IMG/VR virus record: IMGVR_UViG_3300034157_000063
Length of the DNA: 42,916 nucleotides
Source: a virus
Taxonomy: Duplodnaviria; Heunggongvirae; Uroviricota; Caudoviricetes
Direction: 5' to 3' (one strand)
The notes beneath the pieces were generated by a model. It saw only the letters and a program-made list of their open reading frames with translations. It had not been told where the DNA came from and ran no database searches. The position numbers and the translations under genes are program-made. Position 1 is the first letter of the stretch; every line of letters begins with the position of its first letter. This document shows, piece by piece, positions 4,606-35,273 of the stretch.

Positions 4606-4635
4606 GAGACGGTGGATAGCCCACCGTTTCTTTTT
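4606..4635 (+). terminator. Intrinsic terminator
   Basis: GAGACGGTGG-N5-CCACCGTTTC plus T-run. Confidence 0.75.
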
Positions 4636-4661
4636 GAAACACTTTACCTGTCCTTAAAACC

Positions 4662-4690
4662 TTGATGTTTATGAGTGCTTATAGTATAAT
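4662..4690 (+). promoter_or_regulatory. sigma70-type promoter
   Basis: TTGATG-N17-TATAAT. Confidence 0.6.
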
Positions 4691-4715
4691 AGGCAGATTA
4701 ACAAGGAGATTAAAA

Positions 4716-4931
4716 ATGCCCATCAAAAAGTCTAGTCAAAAAGTCACTAAAACGAATGTAAGTGATAAATGGATTTCAGGTGTGATCGGTGGTATTTGTA
4801 AAGCGTATGGCTTTAACCCATTCTTGGTGCGTCTTGCATTCCTAGCACTTATCCTCTTTACATCAGGTGCTTTCATTCTGTTGTATATTGTGCTTGCGTG
4901 TTTAATGCCCAGCGAAGTTGAAGCTCAATAA
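4716..4931 (+). CDS. PspC-domain membrane protein
   Basis: DKWISGVIGGI...LVRLAF...ILLYIVLACLMP; start ATG 4716 after AAGGAG. Confidence 0.85.
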   Translation: MPIKKSSQKVTKTNVSDKWISGVIGGICKAYGFNPFLVRLAFLALILFTSGAFILLYIVLACLMPSEVEAQ

Positions 4932-21078: not shown

Positions 21079-21984
21079 ATGCACTATATTAAGTATGTAT
21101 TAAGCTTTATCTTATTACTGGCATTGGCTGGTTGTAATGATGATAAACATGTCGATTATGAAAAGAATAATTTAACATCAAGTGATATTGATACTGCAAT
21201 GACTTATTTTAATCAAAAATTAATCGAGACTTTAGCTGAAGCTAAGAGTTTAAAAGACCCTTTTGATGCCTATGTTCTCTTAGTAAAAGCTTATTATGGT
21301 GCAGACAGCAATCGAAAACCTATTTCTTACACAGTGCCATCAAAAAATATTATTCTTACTCAATCTAGATTTGCAGTCTCTGGTACAATTGAAGTTCCCT
21401 ATGGTGATGATAAATTTTTGATTAACTTAACCGATAGAAAAGAAGCCCTATCTCTTTTATTTGATTCGCTAGACTCCGCATTAGCACAAGGAAACAAGAA
21501 AGCATTTATTGACCTATATGATTCCAAAAAATCATATTTTGAAAATGATATACAAAGTCTTAAAAAAGTAGAACAACTACAAATCAAATATGCACCCGCT
21601 TTTATGACAATGGCCGAATCACTTTCAGTCGGTGACCCTCTTGATGATGAACTTATTCTTCTATACGCTTATCAAAATAATAAAGGATTCTTCTATACCA
21701 AAAACTCAGCTAAGGCTGTTGACTATTACCAAAAACTTTACCCTACTAACAAAACAGTAGCCCTATACATTATTGGTGTGTATCTTGAAATCAATGATTT
21801 TGAGAATGCCTATTTCTGGAAGGTTCGTTGTATAGATACGTGTGCTAATATGTATGACACCTTATATGCTCCTATTGCTAAAAGGACTAAGGTAGATGAT
21901 ATATTTAGAGAAAGACTAAATAGCACTCAATTTAAAGAAATTGAGAAAGCTTCTAATGATCCATCGAGAACCAGTTTTAAATAA
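21079..21984 (+). CDS. Lipoprotein with Sel1-like repeat
   Basis: Lipobox LAGC; YQNNKGFFYTKNSAKAVDYYQK and FENAYFW are Sel1/TPR-like. Confidence 0.75.
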   Translation: MHYIKYVLSFILLLALAGCNDDKHVDYEKNNLTSSDIDTAMTYFNQKLIETLAEAKSLKDPFDAYVLLVKAYYGADSNRKPISYTVPSKNIILTQSRFAVSGTIEVPYGDDKFLINLTDRKEALSLLFDSLDSALAQGNKKAFIDLYDSKKSYFENDIQSLKKVEQLQIKYAPAFMTMAESLSVGDPLDDELILLYAYQNNKGFFYTKNSAKAVDYYQKLYPTNKTVALYIIGVYLEINDFENAYFWKVRCIDTCANMYDTLYAPIAKRTKVDDIFRERLNSTQFKEIEKASNDPSRTSFK

Positions 21985-21997
21985 TCTAACATACCGC

Positions 21998-22026
21998 TTG
22001 AATTATTTTAAGCGGGCTGTTATAAT
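21998..22026 (+). promoter_or_regulatory. sigma70 promoter of the Ser/Tyr leader
   Basis: TTGAAT-N17-TATAAT with extended -10 (TGtTATAAT); overlapped by inverted repeat CCGCTTGAA...TTTTAAGCGG. Confidence 0.8.
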
Positions 22027-22060
22027 GGATACTATTATTTACTTTGTGGAGAAATACAAA

Positions 22061-22111
22061 ATGAAACCTACATTTGCTGTATCCTATTATTATTCATCAT
22101 ATTCTAGTTAA
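22061..22111 (+). CDS. Putative attenuator leader peptide MKPTFAVSYYYSSYSS
   Basis: SD GGAG 22048-22051; codons 8-16 are TCC TAT TAT TAT TCA TCA TAT TCT AGT, then TAA. Confidence 0.8.
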   Translation: MKPTFAVSYYYSSYSS

Positions 22112-22200
22112 CTGACCAGAGTAGAGGTCAGTTATGGCCTCGAATTCTTGGATAGTAATTATCTTAGACCCTTTGAAGGCCACCTTCAGAGGGTTTTTTT
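22109..22200 (+). promoter_or_regulatory. Attenuator RNA structure (pause hairpin, antiterminator, terminator)
   Basis: 9-bp hairpin TAACTGACC/GGTCAGTTA (22109-22134); TGGCCTCGAA (22135-22144) complementary to TTTGAAGGCCA (22172-22182); terminator overlaps that segment. Confidence 0.75.
22168..22200 (+). terminator. Intrinsic terminator (attenuator terminator)
   Basis: ACCCTTTGAAGG-CCA-CCTTCAGAGGGT (12 bp, one G-U) ending in a run of 7 T. Confidence 0.9.
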
Positions 22201-22290
22201 ATGTCCATAGTGGCAGGGTTAAGTTCAACCTAAAATAATGTAAGTTATTGATTTAAAAAGAAAACAGTTGAAAATAATTTAAAATAGTTG

Positions 22291-22319
22291 TTGACAAAGA
22301 CGAAAGAAGTTGATAGAAT
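22291..22319 (+). promoter_or_regulatory. Second, strong sigma70 promoter for the tRNA array with an A/T-rich UP-like element
   Basis: TTGACA-N17-TAGAAT preceded by AAAATAATTTAAAATAG. Confidence 0.8.
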
Positions 22320-22371
22320 GTTAAACATGAAGAGTTGAGAAGCAAAACGAAAAACTCTTAGTAACACAAAT

Positions 22372-22459
22372 GGAAGATTGGTCGAGTGGCCGATGGCGTC
22401 AGTCTTGAAAACTGAAGGGTGTAATAGCTCCGTGAGTTCGAATCTCACATCTTCCTCCA
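22372..22459 (+). tRNA. tRNA-Ser(UGA), atypical U73 discriminator
   Basis: Acceptor GGAAGAT/ATCTTCC, anticodon arm TCAGT-CTTGAAA-ACTGA, long variable arm, TTCGAAT T-loop, encoded CCA. Confidence 0.95.
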
Positions 22460-22481
22460 AATTTAGTTGTAACTGTATTAT

Positions 22482-22564
22482 GGGTGTTTGGCAGAGTGGC
22501 CGAATGCGACGGGCTGTAAACCCGTATCGAGAGACGCGGAGGTTCGAATCCTTCAGCACCCACC
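22482..22564 (+). tRNA. tRNA-Tyr(GUA)
   Basis: GGGTGTT/AGCACCC, ACGGG-CTGTAAA-CCCGT, A73-CCA. Confidence 0.95.
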
Positions 22565-22586
22565 AAATTAGATGTAAATAGTATAT

Positions 22587-22674
22587 GGAAGCTTGGCCGA
22601 GTGGTTTAAGGCAACAGTCTTGAAAACTGTCGAGTGTAACAGCTCCGTGAGTTCGAATCCCACAGCTTCCGCCA
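22587..22674 (+). tRNA. tRNA-Ser(UGA)
   Basis: GGAAGCT/AGCTTCC, ACAGT-CTTGAAA-ACTGT, G73-CCA. Confidence 0.97.
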
Positions 22675-22697
22675 AATTAGATACAATGTTTTATTAT

Positions 22698-22781
22698 GGG
22701 GGCTTCGCATAGAGGCCGATTGCGGGAGACTGTAAATCTTCATCGAGAGACACGGTGGTTCGAATCCATCAGCCCCCACCA
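22698..22781 (+). tRNA. tRNA-Tyr(GUA)
   Basis: GGGGGCT/AGCCCCC, GGAGA-CTGTAAA-TCTTC, A73-CCA. Confidence 0.95.
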
Positions 22782-22807
22782 AATTTAGATACAATAGTAA
22801 CAACAAT

Positions 22808-22896
22808 GGACGCCTTTCCTGTCAGCGGTCTGTAAAACCGCCGCCTTAATAAGACAGGTCGGTTGGCGTGAGGTTCGAATCCTTGGGCGTCCACCA
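22808..22896 (+). ncRNA. D-arm-less tRNA-Tyr(GUA)-like RNA with an expanded variable region
   Basis: GGACGCC/GGCGTCC acceptor, GCGGT-CTGTAAA-ACCGC anticodon arm, TGAGG-TTCGAAT-CCTTG T arm, ACCA end; only 10 nt where the D arm should be; 27-nt variable region. Confidence 0.85.
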
Positions 22897-22917
22897 AATT
22901 AGTTGTAAACCGTATAT

Positions 22918-23005
22918 GGAAGCTTGGCCGAGTGGTTTAAGGCAACAGTCTTGAAAACTGTCGAGTGTAACAGCTCCGTGAGTTCGAATCCCACAGCTTC
23001 CGCCA
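22918..23005 (+). tRNA. tRNA-Ser(UGA), identical copy of 22587-22674
   Basis: 88-nt exact repeat by eye comparison. Confidence 0.97.
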
Positions 23006-23011
23006 AATTAT

Positions 23012-23062
23012 GGGGAGAAGGGTTGGTTTTTATTTATAGAAGCCGATATCCGCTACCCACCA
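23012..23062 (+). ncRNA. Candidate 51-nt minihelix-like RNA ending in ACCA
   Basis: Begins AT|GG like the other array units; GGGGAG/CTACCC acceptor-like stem (one mismatch); TTGGTTTTT/AGAAGCCGA stem; ACCA 3' end. Confidence 0.45.
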
Positions 23063-23081
23063 TTTCATCGTCAAAAACTTG

Positions 23082-23109
23082 AAGAACAACGCAATGTTGT
23101 TCTTTTTTT
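23082..23109 (+). terminator. Terminator closing the tRNA array
   Basis: AAGAACAAC-GCAAT-GTTGTTCTT plus T-run. Confidence 0.85.
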
Positions 23110-23219
23110 GTTTTCAATTTATTTAAAACCACTCAAATTTTATTAATTCAAAACATTCTTGTAGACCAAACCTTAAAAATATCATAAGATATTAAAATAA
23201 ACTAGAAAAGGTTTGTTTA

Positions 23220-28404: not shown

Positions 28405-29310
28405 TTAAATTTTAATCATTTCGACAAGGATAAAATATTCTTTTAGTTCTTCAGTGGTGAGTTCATTAACATCACATTTTCTCATTTTCAACGTTTCACA
28501 AATTACATTTTTAGCTTCTGCTTTAAATTGATTTTCGAAAAAATCTGTTAACGATTGATTGTCAACGTCAATGCTATTTAACTTTCTTAAAAAACCATTT
28601 TTCAAGGACTGTTCACTGGCAGCAAAATACATCCTTTCAGGATTATTGATGGGAATGATACACATTATCTTATTATGTGCTGAATAGGGTAATTTAATTT
28701 TAAAATATGGCTTAATTGTTTCATCAGGTTCTACAAGATGAATAACTTCGATATTAATATAGGACTTCTTAAAATAGTTCTTTTGAGCACCCATACCTTT
28801 TTGAAGAATATTATTGAAACTGACTGTTGCAATATTTTTGTCTTTAAATTTTAATTCATTGAAATAACCATTATTGGAGAAATGAGTGTTCATGTGTTGG
28901 TTATATTGTTTCATTTCAACACTGTTTAGCAATCCCGATTCAATACCTTTTTTAATGAAGATATCGACAATATTGAGAGCTTTCTCAAAATCTGGTTTAT
29001 ATTTTTCTTGAAAAAAATCAGCTATCTCATGACATTGCTGGCTCATAATAGACACCATCGTAGGCCCGTTAAACATAACACTGATTGTCGGGAAGTAGTG
29101 TAACTTTTCATAACTGCTTTTGATTCTATTTTCAAAAGAAATTTCCATAATCCATTTGTTATCTGCAGTTGTTGCTTTATAAATTGTGGTTGCAATAACA
29201 TTATTTGAAAACTTCGCTTGTTCTTCATTGTATTGATTAAATACAAATACAGGTGAAAGGGATCTCGCAAAATGATTAACAGATGACTTATTCAGTAATG
29301 TTTTAAACAT
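28405..29310 (-). CDS. Seven-paralog array member 7
   Basis: FNNILQK, KKSY, PYFKIKLPYS; ends ELKEYFILVEMIKI; start after GGAG. Confidence 0.85.
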   Translation of the reverse strand: MFKTLLNKSSVNHFARSLSPVFVFNQYNEEQAKFSNNVIATTIYKATTADNKWIMEISFENRIKSSYEKLHYFPTISVMFNGPTMVSIMSQQCHEIADFFQEKYKPDFEKALNIVDIFIKKGIESGLLNSVEMKQYNQHMNTHFSNNGYFNELKFKDKNIATVSFNNILQKGMGAQKNYFKKSYINIEVIHLVEPDETIKPYFKIKLPYSAHNKIMCIIPINNPERMYFAASEQSLKNGFLRKLNSIDVDNQSLTDFFENQFKAEAKNVICETLKMRKCDVNELTTEELKEYFILVEMIKI

Positions 29311-29381
29311 GAAAAACTCCACAATTATGACTAATTAATGGAGTATTATACCATATAACACTTAGCTAAGTCCATGTTTTG

Positions 29382-30305
29382 TTATATTTTAATCATCTCG
29401 ACCAGCATAAAATAATCTTTTAATTCATCGGGAGATAAATTATCTAATTCAGTTTTCTTAATTTTCAATGTTTTAGAAATCGTTGTTTTTATTTCATTTT
29501 CGATTTCACCCTTGAAATAGGCTGTTAATGCTTCTTTTTTTATGGGCATTGATAGTATTTTATCAATAGGCGTATATCTTAACGAATCATCATCACCCAC
29601 TAAATACATGGTGTCCACCCCACTGATTGGAATAACATAGGTGTTTTTATTGGTAGCTGACGTAGGTAATTTAATTTTGAAGTAAGGTTTCACATCATTG
29701 TTTGAATCCACTAAATGAATGATACCTACACTAATGAATGATTTTTTGAAATGTGTTCCATTTTTACCAGACCCTTTTTGAAGAACATTGTTAAAGGTTA
29801 TTCTGGCATAGTTTTTATCCCATATTGAAATAGTTCCATGATAGTGATTGATGTGCATGTGTGAAATCATGTGTCGTTTGTATCTTTTTACAGCAACACT
29901 CTTAAACAGACCAGAGTCAAGACCTTGTTCAATAAATATATCCAGAACATTAAAGACTTTATCGAAGTCAGGTTGATAGAGGTTTTCAAGAAAGTTGGCA
30001 ATGTCTACACTTTGTTGATTTCTTTCAGCCACTGATTCCTTAGTGAAATGGGTTAGCTTCTTTTTTGTGTCTTTTTCGAATGAAATATAGGGATAAAACT
30101 TTTTTCTAATAATGTTGCCTTGTTTTGTTCCGTAAAATTGTGTTACTAATTGCCAGCCTTCGTTAGCTTGTGCTATATATTTTGTAGATTCGCAATCATT
30201 AAAACCATCGTAATAATCATCGGTGTATTTTGAGTATTTAAACAACGGCTCAAAGATTTTGAGTATATTGTTGGCTTCTTGATGGTTCTTGTATGAGTTA
30301 AACAT
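29382..30305 (-). CDS. Seven-paralog array member 6
   Basis: Same motifs; ends ELKDYFMLVEMIKI. Confidence 0.85.
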   Translation of the reverse strand: MFNSYKNHQEANNILKIFEPLFKYSKYTDDYYDGFNDCESTKYIAQANEGWQLVTQFYGTKQGNIIRKKFYPYISFEKDTKKKLTHFTKESVAERNQQSVDIANFLENLYQPDFDKVFNVLDIFIEQGLDSGLFKSVAVKRYKRHMISHMHINHYHGTISIWDKNYARITFNNVLQKGSGKNGTHFKKSFISVGIIHLVDSNNDVKPYFKIKLPTSATNKNTYVIPISGVDTMYLVGDDDSLRYTPIDKILSMPIKKEALTAYFKGEIENEIKTTISKTLKIKKTELDNLSPDELKDYFMLVEMIKI

Positions 30306-30331
30306 AATATTCTCCAAAACGTTCCATTCGA

Positions 30332-31258
30332 TTAAATCTTCAGCATTTCAACGAGTACAAAATATTCTTTCAATTCTTCTGGTGTTATTCCATCCATATC
30401 TGATTTATTAATTTTCAATGTTTTAGAAATAGACGTTTTCATTTCTTTGTAAAACTCTTTATCAAAAAAATCTTTTAAATCTGTTTCGTCCATTGAAATT
30501 GAAGGCAATGTATCAATGCATTCTCTTCTCAACTTGTCATCGTTTGCCATGAAGTAGACAATAGGCTTTCCTGTTAATGGAATCACACATGTTGCTTTTC
30601 TAGACTCTGAATATGGTAATCTTATTTTGAAATAAGGGTGCATTGTGTTATCAGAGTGAGCTAGATAATCAATAGATACACTAATGTAGGATTTTTTGTA
30701 GTGAGTAGTGCCACGATAACCAGAAACCCCTTTCTGCAGGATATTGTTAAAAGTCACGGTGCCAAAGTTATTGTCGCCTATGGTAATAGTTCCAGAATAA
30801 TGATTGGTGTTTAAATGAGTTTTCATCACTTTTTTGTATTTTCTCTCTGCAAGGCTTTTGAACAATCCGCATTCAATTCCTTTCGCAACAAAGAGTTTAA
30901 GGACAGTAAACATTCTGTCAAAATCTGGATTATAGGTCTTTTGTAAGAGTTCTACAATTGCTTTGCCTTTTAGTCTTCTGTCTTTATGTTGTTCTTCGTC
31001 AAAATTACGAACACGCTCGCCCTGTTGTCTAAATTTAATTTCTGGATAATAGACTTTTACATCTTCTTTTGAGTTTTTATTGTTATAAAATGTAAGAATT
31101 AAAGCCCAGTTATCATCGGTTATGGCTGTATAGGTGGTAGCACAAAACCCTAAATCGGAAGAGTTAACGTTGACATCAAATTTCACAAAATTAAATACTG
31201 ATGAAAACAAAGTGACCAGATGGTTGGCTTCTAGGTGGTTCGGATAGGTATTAAACAT
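30332..31258 (-). CDS. Seven-paralog array member 5
   Basis: Same motifs; ends ELKEYFVLVEMLKI. Confidence 0.85.
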   Translation of the reverse strand: MFNTYPNHLEANHLVTLFSSVFNFVKFDVNVNSSDLGFCATTYTAITDDNWALILTFYNNKNSKEDVKVYYPEIKFRQQGERVRNFDEEQHKDRRLKGKAIVELLQKTYNPDFDRMFTVLKLFVAKGIECGLFKSLAERKYKKVMKTHLNTNHYSGTITIGDNNFGTVTFNNILQKGVSGYRGTTHYKKSYISVSIDYLAHSDNTMHPYFKIRLPYSESRKATCVIPLTGKPIVYFMANDDKLRRECIDTLPSISMDETDLKDFFDKEFYKEMKTSISKTLKINKSDMDGITPEELKEYFVLVEMLKI

Positions 31259-31324
31259 AATATACTCCAAAAATATTTAATAATTGTATCATAAACAAAT
31301 AATGATTGCCATTGTTTTTACAAT

Positions 31325-31352
31325 AAAAAAAAGACCTTTTCTAAGGTCTTTT
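31325..31352 (-). terminator. Intrinsic terminator inside the paralog array
   Basis: A-run-GACCTT-TTCT-AAGGTC-TTTT. Confidence 0.7.
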
Positions 31353-31365
31353 AATCAGCGTAATC

Positions 31366-32292
31366 TTACATTTTAACCATTTCTAACAAAATAAAATGAT
31401 TTCTTAATTCATCGTCCGCGAATTTAATCAAATCATTTTTTTTAATCTTTAATGTTCTTGACAGTACACTTATTATTTCGTTTCTAAATTCTTCTTTGAA
31501 GAAAGATTCCAAATATGTTTTATCTGTTGAATGTTGTTGGAGGTTATCAATAAATCCTTTTCTTAAATGATGATCGTCATTTGCAATATACATTTTTGAG
31601 CCATCAAAAGAAACCATACAGTTTATTTTCTTATGCGAAGAATATGGGAGTTTTATTTTAAAATAAGGCGTAATTTCATTGTCTGAACTGACCATGTATG
31701 CAATATCTATGCTTAGATGAGATTTTTTAAAATGGCTTTCCCCAGCTCTCAATGTTTGAAGCACATTATTAAATTTAATTTTTGCGAATACAACGCTATT
31801 AAAGAATAATCTATTATATCCTATTCCGTCTTCATACCTACGAAATTGTGTCATTGAATGTCTTTTATATGGCATAATTTTAACATTGTTATAGATACCA
31901 GTCTCAACACCTTGTTGAAGAAATATTTCTATAATCTCGATTGCTCTATCAAAGTTAGGATTGTATATATTTTGGAAATATTCAATGATGCTATCAGCTT
32001 GAACTTTATCAGCATCTTTTTCAGTATATGTTGATCTATCTCCATGTGAATATCTTTTATCTCTATGTTTTTCAAATTCAACACATGGATAATAATACCT
32101 AGTGTCTACATCTGTTTTCTCACCTTGTTCAAAAGCGGCAACGATATTCCAAGCATTATCATTTTCAGCTACATAGTTTGACTTATCATACTTGTCATTA
32201 CATTTTTCTTGAAACTTTGTAAAATTTAATACTGGGTTGAATAACTCTACTAATTTATTCATCTCAATGTAATTAGGACATTTTTTAAACAA
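31366..32292 (-). CDS. Seven-paralog array member 4
   Basis: Same motifs; TTG start after GGAG. Confidence 0.85.
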   Translation of the reverse strand: MFKKCPNYIEMNKLVELFNPVLNFTKFQEKCNDKYDKSNYVAENDNAWNIVAAFEQGEKTDVDTRYYYPCVEFEKHRDKRYSHGDRSTYTEKDADKVQADSIIEYFQNIYNPNFDRAIEIIEIFLQQGVETGIYNNVKIMPYKRHSMTQFRRYEDGIGYNRLFFNSVVFAKIKFNNVLQTLRAGESHFKKSHLSIDIAYMVSSDNEITPYFKIKLPYSSHKKINCMVSFDGSKMYIANDDHHLRKGFIDNLQQHSTDKTYLESFFKEEFRNEIISVLSRTLKIKKNDLIKFADDELRNHFILLEMVKM

Positions 32293-32376
32293 GATGTTCT
32301 CCAATATATTTATAAAATTAGCATAACATAAAAAATAAGAAATACTATTGTATACATATAATTTTATAGAATTTTC

Positions 32377-33258
32377 TTAATATTTTATCATATCAACAAG
32401 AATAAAATAATTTTTTAATTCATCTTGTGACAACTTCTTTAGATCTGCTTTTTTCATTTTTAAGGTTTTTGAAATTGAGTTTATGACTTCAATATTAAAA
32501 ATGTTTTTGAAATATAAATTTAAGGACTCATCATCTGTTTGATGAGCTTCTAAATGATCAATGAAGTTAAGTTGAAATTCATGATCTGTTTTAGTGAAAT
32601 ACATTTTAGAACAATCAAAAGATATAATACAGTTTACCTTTTTATGTGATGTATAAGGGAGTCGAATTTTAAAATATGGCATAAGTTGTTTATCGCTACC
32701 TACTAGGTATATGAAATCTATTGACATGACAGATTTTTTATAATTAGTTTCACCAGATCTTAAACTTTGAAGAATGTTATTAAAATTTATACTGGCATAA
32801 ATTCGATTGTAAACTCCATGTATATGTGTTCTTGAATGTCTTTCATATTTTTTTAGAGTAATCTTTTGAAATATTCCAGAATCTAAACCCTGCTTGGTAA
32901 AAATTTCAAGAATATTTATCATTCTGTCAAAATTAGGTTTATAAAGTTTATGAAAATAATTAATAAATTCGTCTGATCTTTGAATTTCTATTTTTCGTTC
33001 TTCGTCTGTTAAAGTAATATACCTATATTGTTCTTCATAATTTTTAAATTTGATAGATGGCGATTTTGCTAAATACCAATCATGTTTTTCAAAATGTTTT
33101 GGATAATTTATAACAATTCTCCATTTATCACTGGCTTCTGCAGTATAATTTACACCGTAATGTATATCAGTTTCTGTAAATTTTTCAAAATTTAAAAATG
33201 GTTTAAATAATTCAATAAAATTATTACTTTCGACATGAAAATCATATTTTTCAAACAC
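32377..33258 (-). CDS. Seven-paralog array member 3
   Basis: Same motifs; GTG start after GGAG. Confidence 0.85.
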   Translation of the reverse strand: MFEKYDFHVESNNFIELFKPFLNFEKFTETDIHYGVNYTAEASDKWRIVINYPKHFEKHDWYLAKSPSIKFKNYEEQYRYITLTDEERKIEIQRSDEFINYFHKLYKPNFDRMINILEIFTKQGLDSGIFQKITLKKYERHSRTHIHGVYNRIYASINFNNILQSLRSGETNYKKSVMSIDFIYLVGSDKQLMPYFKIRLPYTSHKKVNCIISFDCSKMYFTKTDHEFQLNFIDHLEAHQTDDESLNLYFKNIFNIEVINSISKTLKMKKADLKKLSQDELKNYFILVDMIKY

Positions 33259-33343
33259 TCGACACTCCAATATATGTTATACAATTAGCATAACATTAAA
33301 AACAATAAATACCATTGTATAGATATATTAAAGTATGATATTT

Positions 33344-34252
33344 TTAAATTTTTACCATTTCTACAAGAATAAAATATTCCTTCAATTCATCAGTTGTTAA
33401 TCCAGTTAATTCAGACTTCTTAATCTTTAATGTACCCACAATCACATTCTTGACTTCATTTTGTAGTTCTTTTTTAAAGAATGCTGATAGGGTCTTGTCA
33501 TCAATTGCGACTTCTTCATTCAGTGTGTCCACATATTTTTCTTTTAACGTATTATCTGATTCGGCCATATACATTTTAGAGCTTCTGCACAATGGAATAA
33601 CACAGGTAATTTTCTTTGTTGCTGAATAAGGTAGTCGAATCTTAAAATAAGGTTTCAACTCATTGTCAGAACTAAGTAGGTGGACTATTTCTATATTGAT
33701 GTAAGCTTTCTTGAACGATCTACCTTGACACTTACTATCTTTCTGCAGCACTTTATTGAATAATACAGTAGCACAATTAGTGTCATTAAATGATATTTGA
33801 TGATAATACTTATGCGTCCCAAAATAGTTACTAATATGTTGTGTTTCATCTTTTAATTTCACATTATTAAAAATTCCAATGTCAACGCCTTCTTTTATAA
33901 AAATATCAATAACATTAAGCACCTGATCAAAATCAGGAGTATACTTATTTTGAAATAGTTCAGTGAGTTCAGCCACCTTATCTCGTTTAATAGCCGTTAC
34001 ATAATCAGATACAGTTCGTTCAAACTTAACTTCTGGATAATAATGTTTTTGGTCGTGTTTACTTCTAAAACGGTTATCGAATGACACAACCATTTTCCAA
34101 TTATCGTCAGTGTTGGCTGTATAAATTGTTGTCCCAATATCCCTTTCATAGCTTTTATGATTTTCTTCATGGAATGTGGTAAAGTTAAATACGGATGAAA
34201 CTTGTTCAACCAGTTTATTAACATCCTCGCAATTTTTATATTTTTCAAACAT
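33344..34252 (-). CDS. Seven-paralog array member 2
   Basis: Same motifs; ATG start after GGAG. Confidence 0.85.
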   Translation of the reverse strand: MFEKYKNCEDVNKLVEQVSSVFNFTTFHEENHKSYERDIGTTIYTANTDDNWKMVVSFDNRFRSKHDQKHYYPEVKFERTVSDYVTAIKRDKVAELTELFQNKYTPDFDQVLNVIDIFIKEGVDIGIFNNVKLKDETQHISNYFGTHKYYHQISFNDTNCATVLFNKVLQKDSKCQGRSFKKAYINIEIVHLLSSDNELKPYFKIRLPYSATKKITCVIPLCRSSKMYMAESDNTLKEKYVDTLNEEVAIDDKTLSAFFKKELQNEVKNVIVGTLKIKKSELTGLTTDELKEYFILVEMVKI

Positions 34253-34288
34253 AATTGGCTCCAAATAATTATTGATTACTACAAAAGT

Positions 34289-35206
34289 TCAAATGTTCAC
34301 CATTTCAACGAGAACAAAATATTCTTTCAAGTCATTAATAGTTAAATCTTTCAAGTCTGTTTTACTAATTTTTAAACGAGCTGCAATTGTGCTTTTGATT
34401 TGTTTCTCAAATAATTGTGTAAACATATCATGAATATTAGATTCATTTAAAGCTTCTGATGTTTGTTGGTCTATATGGTATTTTTCCAAATGGTTATCAT
34501 CCAAAAAGAAATACCCTTTATCACCCGTCATTGAAAGTACACAACTGATTTTCTTATTTTCAAAATAAGGTAACCGAAGTTTAAAATAAGGGTGCATTGT
34601 ATTATCAGAATGCACCAAGTAAATAACATCCACATTGATGTAAGATTTCTTAAAATGCTTTGCCTGTATACCATCGCCTTTTTGTAGAATATTGTTAAAA
34701 TATACATCTGCGATGTTTTGATCTGTCATGTGAATTTTTTTGTCATAATGATGAGATAAAACATGAGATTCAATGCTTTTTTTGTAGTATTTTTTATCGA
34801 CTACGTTAATCACGCCAGCTTGGGTGCCTACATCAATGAACCAGTCCATAATTTCAGTAATTTTATCAAAATTAGGGGTATACATAGTTTCTAACATACG
34901 AACAATAGATCTAACATCATTTCTAATCTTATCAGAGTTGAAGACTTGGACTTCATTGTCAACAAAAACGAGTTTGGCAATCTTATGTTTAAGTTGCTGC
35001 TGGTTTTTATGGGTTTTAAGTGGATTCATGAATGTTACTTCAATATCTCTTTGACCTACTTGTGATGTGGCCTCATACATAGTTTTAAAGACATAACCGT
35101 GCCGGTCAGCGTAGTTTTCTTCTTTGAAGGTGTTAAATTGAAAGTCGTTTTTCAATGTCATTAACAGATTGTTGACTTCAATATGATTTGGATAGATTTT
35201 AAACAT
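34289..35206 (-). CDS. Seven-paralog array member 1
   Basis: Same motifs; ATG 35206 after GGAG. Confidence 0.85.
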   Translation of the reverse strand: MFKIYPNHIEVNNLLMTLKNDFQFNTFKEENYADRHGYVFKTMYEATSQVGQRDIEVTFMNPLKTHKNQQQLKHKIAKLVFVDNEVQVFNSDKIRNDVRSIVRMLETMYTPNFDKITEIMDWFIDVGTQAGVINVVDKKYYKKSIESHVLSHHYDKKIHMTDQNIADVYFNNILQKGDGIQAKHFKKSYINVDVIYLVHSDNTMHPYFKLRLPYFENKKISCVLSMTGDKGYFFLDDNHLEKYHIDQQTSEALNESNIHDMFTQLFEKQIKSTIAARLKISKTDLKDLTINDLKEYFVLVEMVNI

Positions 35207-35273
35207 AACATTCTCCACAAATATTTGCCATATTGTATCATAATTCATTAGAAAACGCTATTGAAATAGATGC

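Follow-up and report, generated by a model that had tools for sequence, protein, structure and literature searches.

A candidate leader-peptide attenuator reading serine and tyrosine codons precedes a Ser/Tyr tRNA array in a large uncultured phage

Leader-peptide attenuation is a textbook mechanism whose known outputs are biosynthesis enzymes and a few aminoacyl-tRNA synthetases. The thr (Thr + Ile) and ilvGMEDA (Ile/Leu/Val) leaders mix codons for several amino acids, and a shortage of any one of them relieves termination, while the pheST attenuator of E. coli, with its leader pheM, has phenylalanyl-tRNA synthetase as an output matched to the leader codons. T-box leaders bind uncharged tRNA directly via a specifier codon and need no translation. 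To our knowledge, the outputs of the described leader-peptide attenuators are all amino-acid biosynthesis enzymes or synthetases. Here we analyse IMG/VR record IMGVR_UViG_3300034157_000063, a 42.9-kb stretch of DNA referred to below as the window, in which a short open-reading frame (ORF) ending in nine serine (Ser) or tyrosine (Tyr) codons precedes an array of Ser and Tyr tRNA genes. We think it fairly probable that this leader is an attenuator that adds read-through from its own promoter, P1, to tRNA transcription driven by a second promoter, P2, when decoding of Ser and Tyr codons is slow.

The module and the his leader of enterobacteria (hisL, RF00514) both have a promoter, a short ORF with cognate codons before the stop, more than four overlapping helices of which alternate ones are exclusive, and an intrinsic terminator. 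Unlike the his leader, the module has control codons for two amino acids, tRNAs as its output and a second promoter after the terminator. Codons for more than one amino acid in a single leader are shared with thr and ilvGMEDA which, unlike this module, control the pathways making those amino acids. Since more tRNA transcription cannot cure an amino-acid shortage, the meaningful input here would be the amount of usable tRNA. The module would be like pheST/pheM in being a leader-peptide attenuator with a codon-matched output from the translation apparatus, although that output is a synthetase protein in pheST and tRNAs here, and there is no sequence similarity. It also resembles a T-box in the sensing of tRNA state that it would perform and in its terminator/antiterminator switch before translation-supply genes of the amino acid concerned; unlike a T-box, it has a Shine-Dalgarno (SD) sequence, an ATG and a codon run, and the Rfam T-box model gave no match at E-values up to 10 over 21950-22350. 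The only Rfam matches in the leader were to attenuator families and were sub-threshold, the best to the trpB motif RF04312 (32.9 bits, threshold 59) and the second-best to His_leader RF00514 over 22094-22202 (32.2 bits, threshold 49). As the latter score lies below the gathering threshold, it is no evidence of homology; the leader resembles the attenuator architecture and is not a member of the His_leader or trpB motif family. Between the leader terminator and the terminator at 23081, tRNA genes are the only genes, with no biosynthesis or synthetase gene among them. In its proposed operation the module follows the his, thr and ilv attenuators, whereas tRNA genes are a new class of output; no account of leader-peptide or attenuator control of tRNA genes was found in the literature searched.

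A preliminary description of this locus had proposed a ribosome-mediated attenuator, a reading that is supported in that all of its sequence-level requirements are present and conserved. The promoter, SD, 16-codon ORF and nine Ser/Tyr codons that it listed were all found, with the ORF coordinates shifted by one base (Table 1), and the succession of predicted promoter, ribosome-binding site, start codon and short ORF recurs in three leader versions. All nine terminal codons are Ser or Tyr, ahead of an array that is solely Ser/Tyr. This run is the longest of its kind in the six frames of the window, where ~5e-4 such runs would be expected, and Ser and Tyr together make up just 12.2% of codons in the phage's own ORFs. 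ARAGORN and Rfam agree with the preliminary description on three Ser(UGA) and two Tyr(GUA) tRNA genes, and found no other isotype in the whole window; between them, these tRNAs read every Tyr codon of the run and every Ser codon of the form TCN. The sixth RNA of the array, termed Tyr-like, has a GUA anticodon loop and a long variable region without a normal D arm, and its best Rfam score is just 23.7 bits, to tRNA-Sec. P2 sits between the terminator and the array, 52 nucleotides (nt) upstream of the first tRNA, and its hexamers and TG are kept in every homolog reaching that far. That P2 could drive the array independently had been anticipated, and its near-consensus match and conservation bear this out; because it is conserved downstream of the terminator, the attenuator can only add to basal transcription.

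Table 1 Coordinates of the Ser/Tyr module in the window and of related features in other phage contigs
Feature	Position	Strand	Basis or remark
Promoter P1, TTGAAT-17-TATAAT with extended -10 TG	21998..22026	+	consensus scan, 10/12 matches
Inverted repeat CCGCTT...AAGCGG over the -35 hexamer of P1	21994..22015	.	read from sequence
Shine-Dalgarno GGAG, 9 nt 5' of ATG	22048..22051	+	sequence
Leader ORF MKPTFAVSYYYSSYSS, 16 codons + TAA	22061..22111	+	sequence; ATG at 22061
Run of nine Ser/Tyr codons, TCC TAT TAT TAT TCA TCA TAT TCT AGT	22082..22108	+	
Long leader hairpin (anti-antiterminator, predicted to form without a ribosome)	22086..22159	+	minimum-free-energy fold of full leader
Hairpin S1:S2, 22109-22117:22126-22134, 9 bp, -12.0 kcal/mol	22109..22134	+	5' arm starts with stop codon
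Hairpin S2:S3, 22124-22130:22135-22141, 7 bp, -10.9 kcal/mol	22124..22141	+	
Antiterminator domain, S3 22135-22144:S4 22172-22182, -16.5 kcal/mol	22135..22182	+	minimum-free-energy fold of transcripts ending at 22182
Intrinsic terminator, stem 22166-22179:22183-22196, -19.7 kcal/mol, loop CCA, T7 at 22194-22200	22166..22200	+	
Promoter P2, TTGACA-17-TAGAAT + TG, A/T-rich upstream region	22291..22319	+	11/12 matches
tRNA array	22372..23005	+	ARAGORN + Rfam
Ser(UGA) tRNA genes	22372-22459, 22587-22674, 22918-23005	+	ARAGORN/Rfam
Tyr(GUA) tRNA genes	22482-22565, 22698-22781	+	ARAGORN/Rfam
Tyr-like RNA	22808-22896	+	not called by ARAGORN
Closing terminator of tRNA transcription unit	23081..23111	+	terminator scan: 11 pairs, then T run
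Leader type A, MKPTFAVSYYYSSYSS			run SYYYSSYSS
Leader type B, MKPTFKFSSSYYYSYSR			run SSSYYYSYSR
Leader type C, MKTTLMTTSYYYSYYSH			run SYYYSYYSH
LR756502.1 unit: Ser/Arg-rich ORF MKTTIKNTSSRSRSSKSGEVRLYS + terminator	L163 (370791-380885): 4630-4757		
Second LR756502.1 unit: K/H/F-rich 28-codon ORF + terminator	L163:2140-2289		before Phe-His-Phe and Lys x3
serS and tyrS loci in G001	230770-231981 and 243062-244297 (L159, L161)		15-29 kb upstream of Ser/Tyr array

Four successive, mutually exclusive helices were found in all leader versions, namely S1:S2, S2:S3, the S3:S4 antiterminator and the S4:S5 terminator. Preceded by a pairing of the codons with a segment 3' of them, these make up a chain like that of the his leader. 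The first of the four is the 9-bp hairpin that the preliminary description placed at the stop codon, and it is present as described. S2:S3 excludes S1:S2, sequesters the 5' arm of the antiterminator and forms in folding once S1 is masked. S3, TGGCCTCGAA, pairs with the 5' arm and loop of the terminator through 6 + 4 bp with A22176 bulged, as had been proposed, so the antiterminator helix uses bases of the terminator 5' arm; the stem that it encloses is corrected to 22146-22168 (pairs 22146-22148:22166-22168 and an inner hairpin 22150-22154:22160-22164). An intrinsic terminator with a U tail lies between the leader and the tRNA genes, as claimed earlier, although its stem, given before as 12 bp, has a core of 11 bp (22169-22179:22183-22193). 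RNA ending at 22182, before the terminator 3' arm, folds as S1:S2 plus the antiterminator, and 22109-22182 folds at -29.4 kcal/mol versus -14.5 +/- 2.8 kcal/mol for dinucleotide shuffles (z = -5.4). The minimum-free-energy (MFE) structure of the full leader, at -47.9 kcal/mol, is the long hairpin with S1:S2 at its tip, followed by the terminator. This hairpin stacks three paired segments on S1:S2, namely 22086-22096:22149-22159 (11 bp, containing the Tyr codons), 22101-22104:22142-22145 and 22106-22107:22139-22140. The codon-containing hairpin is also the MFE structure of 22082-22165 (z = -3.3 versus shuffles), and a further fold z-score was -2.7. An earlier caveat, that the hairpin at the stop codon barely reaches the antiterminator, is resolved by two pairings not listed before, S2:S3 and the 11-bp stem of the long hairpin.

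The phosphatase gene neighbouring the module led, at 79% protein identity, to L001 on a 437-kb IMG/VR contig (G001), which carries the module 2.4 kb upstream of its phosphatase. Using the Tyr-like RNA as a probe gave three further metagenome contigs, and relatives of a 301-amino-acid (aa) protein encoded upstream gave seven further loci (L152-L158), six of them reaching into the leader. In all, the leader module was found in 11 metagenomic loci representing seven distinct sequences and three peptide versions (types A to C). P1, an SD at 9-10 nt (GGAG or AGGA), the ATG and the in-frame Ser/Tyr run are kept in every version, and the TAA stop always forms the first three bases of S1; the -10 of P1 is unchanging across all homologs and its -35 almost so. 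The ORF is intact in all seven distinct sequences, with every indel between types in frame. Changes within the run stay Ser or Tyr: TCA becomes TAC by two substitutions in type C, and type B has AGT TCA added upstream in the run. The last codon before the stop is the sole freely varying one (AGT, CGC or CAT). All leader versions precede Ser/Tyr-only arrays, although these vary in number, order and Ser anticodons (UGA, CGA, GCU, AGA). Homologous arrays lacking the leader, which would have spoken against attenuation, were not seen, as the leader is present in all loci reaching far enough upstream. L001 has different sequence on either side of the module and an upstream gene on the opposite strand, yet P1, leader and terminator are kept, which argues that the leader moves together with the array and does not belong to the end of an upstream gene. 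The leader stays at 97-100% nucleotide identity in loci where the neighbouring protein gene has ~70% (and its protein 49-58%). Conservation of the spacer, P2 and the tRNAs equals that of the leader, which argues for the whole module and not for the leader specifically. Over 89 nt, the Tyr-like RNA of the window matches L001:2330-2418 at 100% identity, with the flanking tRNAs diverged, and its 25-nt 3' end is present in four large metagenome contigs.

The alternative helices are also retained across the leader types. S1:S2 and S2:S3 are fully paired in all seven sequences, each with one both-sided change, T-A to C-G in L001 for S1:S2 and A-T to G-C at S2 nucleotide 22130 for S2:S3; pair counts were limited to these two helices, as the MAFFT alignment misplaces the codon run of type B and the 3' half of type C. 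In type C, the most diverged version, 22130 changes from A to G and its partners 22113 (S1) and 22135 (S3) each change from T to C, so that both alternative helices remain intact. The antiterminator of type C is kept with different bases (GGCCUCUA:UGGAGGCC), and the terminator, found in all homologs, has a weaker stem in this type; the four helices in 5' to 3' order have -12.6, -12.0, -19.4 and -13.7 kcal/mol in type C and -12.0, -10.9, -16.5 and -19.7 kcal/mol in types A and B. The long hairpin is common to types A and B, while type C has another codon-containing hairpin, built on S2:S3, and the 11-bp stem is not in its MFE. The inverted repeat at P1 has longer arms in L001 (CAGCTTGAAT/ATTCAAGCTG) with a C-G to A-T double (compensatory) change, is absent or weak in type B leaders, and may be a candidate operator regulating P1 itself. 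An ATG at 22201, in the terminator U-tract, was rejected as a gene, as it has no SD and the ORFs that it opens in types A to C are unrelated to one another in length and sequence.

Other searches for homologs were negative or uninformative. No relative of the upstream 301-aa protein was found in IMG/VR, where specific probes from the leader and the Tyr-like RNA matched only the contig of L001; a 16-mer from the codon run proved too unspecific as an IMG/VR probe, with 120 unrelated AT-rich matches. Phosphatase relatives at 59-64% identity (L141-L144, L148 and L149) had no tRNA array nearby and yielded no more distant leaders.

A comparable arrangement was reached via a weak tRNA-Ser match in LR756502.1, a published 642-kb uncultured phage. 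Here the terminator after a Ser/Arg-rich ORF (L163:4728-4757) ends 14 nt before tRNA-Arg(ACG), which is followed by Ser(UGA) and Arg(UCG), and in the fold of the shortened transcript GGUUCGA pairs with the terminator 5' arm, an antiterminator pairing. No second promoter was seen between this terminator and the tRNA. A second unit of LR756502.1 has a leader ORF rich in Lys, His and Phe codons before tRNAs of these isotypes (Table 1). The match of these leaders to their arrays argues that leader content follows array isotypes in an independent lineage, and the Ser/Arg-rich leader before Arg-Ser-Arg is the covariation of leader codons with tRNA isotype that the preliminary description had called for.

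We infer leader translation, ribosome stalling and read-through from the elements described above, from their conservation and from their energetics. P1 transcripts would start near 22033 and encode the 16-codon leader, and the position of the leading ribosome would decide which of the overlapping helices form. With no ribosome, the Tyr/Ser codons are predicted to pair with 22139-22159 in the long hairpin on S1:S2, which would lock S3 and let the terminator at 22166-22196 form. A ribosome at the stop codon would cover S1, so that S2 pairs with S3 and the terminator again forms. A ribosome stalled ~9 to 3 codons before the stop, the predicted control codons, would mask the codon strand and leave S1 free; S1:S2 would form first, and the free S3 could then zip onto the emerging 5' arm and loop of the terminator. 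With the antiterminator formed, RNA polymerase would read through, past P2 and into the array. Because such a stall leaves S1 free and read-through follows, slow Ser/Tyr decoding would add P1 transcription to the basal output of P2, a negative feedback on tRNA supply.

The energetics of this scheme were examined as direct-path barriers and in a co-transcriptional simulation. The barrier into the antiterminator was 3.1 kcal/mol with S1:S2 formed and S3 free, 9.7 kcal/mol from the S2:S3 state and 13.8 kcal/mol from the long hairpin; that from antiterminator to terminator was 14.6 kcal/mol, and that for swapping S1:S2 to S2:S3 ~15 kcal/mol. In the simulation, which is a crude heuristic of our own and not a validated kinetic model, pairs were kept as each nucleotide was added unless the new MFE was reachable below 6, 8 or 10 kcal/mol. 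Termination resulted with no ribosome, with a ribosome at the stop and with one at codon -1, in all three types and at every limit. At codon -2 the outcome was termination except in type A at limit 6, which gave the antiterminator, and stalls at codons -6 to -4 gave antitermination in all three types at most limits. When the 54 nt separating stop codon and terminator were shuffled (n = 110), the three-state behaviour was reproduced by only 2 of the 110 sequences. Codon -1, the one position of the run that varies freely, is also the one at which a stall is predicted to resemble a ribosome at the stop and to be uninformative. The pairing of codons 22086-22107 with 22139-22159, S1:S2 and S2:S3 are present as a putative anti-antiterminator at the coding region, with the three-state logic seen in the heuristic simulation only and not in MFE folding.

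Several observations weigh against the attenuator. MFE folding at successive lengths with ribosome masks was rejected as a discriminator, as it gives the same outcome for a stalled ribosome as for one at the stop: the terminator is favoured in every full-length fold and the antiterminator in every fold ending at 22182, whatever the mask. Since equilibrium folding is indifferent to the mask, the decision must be kinetic, as in classical attenuators. Of the folding with and without ribosome masking suggested earlier, the barrier-limited simulation separates the states at most limits and the MFE staging does not. The simulation is itself threshold-dependent, as type A switches only at codon -6 at limit 8 and also at codon -2 at limit 6, while type C at limit 6 never switches. 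Near-consensus P2, conserved in all homologs, can transcribe the array whatever the attenuator does. The final codon of the run, AGT, has no matching tRNA in the array of the window. The covariation carries no statistical weight, 61-72 of 500 shuffles equalling it, because it comes from a single diverged lineage, and the conservation of the module could reflect recent exchange and not selection on the leader. Finally, the 21 tRNAs found in the 437-kb relative outside its Ser/Tyr array are without such a leader; its other tRNA clusters were scanned for ATG-started, codon-matched small ORFs and none was convincing.

The separate promoter after the terminator also invites a different explanation, in which the stretch from P1 through the ORF to the terminator is complete in itself as a small gene or small RNA, the peptide or the terminated RNA of ~170 nt acts in trans, and the array is transcribed from P2 only. 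The strength of the terminator (-19.7 kcal/mol + T7), the near-consensus P2 and the very high conservation of the whole leader RNA would all suit such a unit, and trans functions of attenuator RNAs and leader peptides are known from rnTrpL and peTrpL of Sinorhizobium, as far as the available part of the source describes them. We nevertheless consider this unlikely, as it leaves unexplained a peptide of the array's exact two amino acids in three versions, the terminator-competing helix kept with different bases in type C, and the codon-matched unit of LR756502.1 in which no second promoter was seen. A trans role and attenuation could coexist.

Alternatively, the leader might sense translation in general, reporting coupling or global capacity after host shut-off, with codon identity irrelevant and the run kept mainly as an RNA helix strand. 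The block TCCTATTATTATTCA is invariant in nucleotides and, in types A and B, supplies one strand of the 11-bp stem whose other strand is 22149-22159, so pairing alone could conserve it, and the outcome of the simulation is set by ribosome position and not by codon identity. Outside this block, however, the run changes yet stays Ser/Tyr (TCA to TAC in type C; AGT TCA added in type B), and type C keeps the run though the 11-bp stem is absent from its MFE. As a general sensor would also make the isotype match of the array and the Ser/Arg match in LR756502.1 coincidences, we regard it as quite improbable. Finally, an unregulated arrangement, in which the terminator ends upstream transcription and insulates the array while the ORF and alternative pairings are incidental, fits the position of the terminator 180 nt after the same-strand 301-aa gene in the window, an AT-rich sequence rich in weak alternative pairings and the ~7% of shuffles that also lost the terminator in the stalled state, but is very improbable given that P1, leader and terminator are kept in L001 behind an upstream gene on the opposite strand, that the codon run alone, leaving the isotype match aside, has a chance of ~5e-4, that the fold has z = -5.4 and that none of the 11 loci has lost the ORF or the SD.

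G001 encodes both serS (504.7 bits) and tyrS (380.8 bits), above the curated cut-offs, with weaker matches to two more synthetase-like genes at 209474 and 414631; neither serS nor tyrS was found in the window. With both genes in this relative, the replacement tRNAs of the counter-defence reading considered below could be aminoacylated by phage-encoded synthetases. Directly before tyrS, L161:1290-1500 contains a TTGACC-17-TATACT promoter, an SD, a 15-codon ORF (MKATFHFQKSFTVRY), a weak hairpin and a T run. This ORF has Tyr as its last codon, and the start of its peptide resembles the MKPTF of the tRNA leader; it was not called an attenuator, having too few Tyr codons.

tRNA-Tyr is a target of phage-defence nucleases, the PtuAB of Retron-Eco7 and Septu, and phages escape its cleavage via strong expression of their own tRNA-Tyr (PMC11555353 and the available part of PMC13096335). 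In that escape, as would hold for the module described here, tRNA-Tyr is supplied by the phage and the strength of its expression matters; unlike the proposed module, it is described there with a strong constitutive promoter and no sensor. Because tRNA-Tyr is a known nuclease target, a circuit sensing its depletion is attractive. In such a circuit the leader would be the sensor arm of counter-defence: nucleases that destroy tRNAs with a long variable arm (tRNA-Tyr by enzymes like Septu or PtuAB, tRNA-Ser by another nuclease) would stall leader ribosomes, and the phage would boost replacement Ser/Tyr tRNAs, perhaps as a general and so far undescribed way for giant phages to tune or defend their tRNA supply. 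We offer this larger view tentatively, as possible though doubtful, and a counter-defence trigger for this particular phage is speculative. The loop appears closed, as the sensor would read the very codons that its tRNA output decodes. If the attenuator is real, phage tRNA genes would be regulated on demand and not simply expressed, which would give a handle on the purpose of phage tRNAs, whether codon supply or the replacement of tRNAs destroyed by host defences. The leader element, which is short and self-contained, would then offer a small natural device for sensing how well chosen codons can be decoded.

Further observations concern the contigs that carry the module. One carrier, L139 (Ga0308158_10000001), is listed at 1,859,102 bp compared with 437-604 kb for the others and shares 77-83% identity with several kb of the window; its length could reflect chimeric assembly, concatemer formation or a very large element. 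Four others (L152, L153, L155 and L156; three from Logan and one from ENA) break off within the region of the leader, P2 and first tRNA, at 300-480 nt past the 301-aa gene. These breaks probably sit at repeated tRNAs, so that surveys of the module in short-read assemblies will undercount it. Elsewhere in G001, L133:1948-2021 is a tRNA with the anticodon CUA (amber suppressor; labelled Pyl by ARAGORN) and L135:4863-4938 is a tRNA-like gene with the four-base anticodon agaa, which hint at stop-codon recoding or frameshift suppression. The window itself, from a large uncultured phage, has ~33% G+C and encodes few proteins that can be recognised. Seven tandem ORFs of ~300 aa lie on its minus strand at 28405-35248; Pfam and PHROG gave no family for the one member tested, and the paralog series recurs 3' of the phosphatase in L145 and L146.

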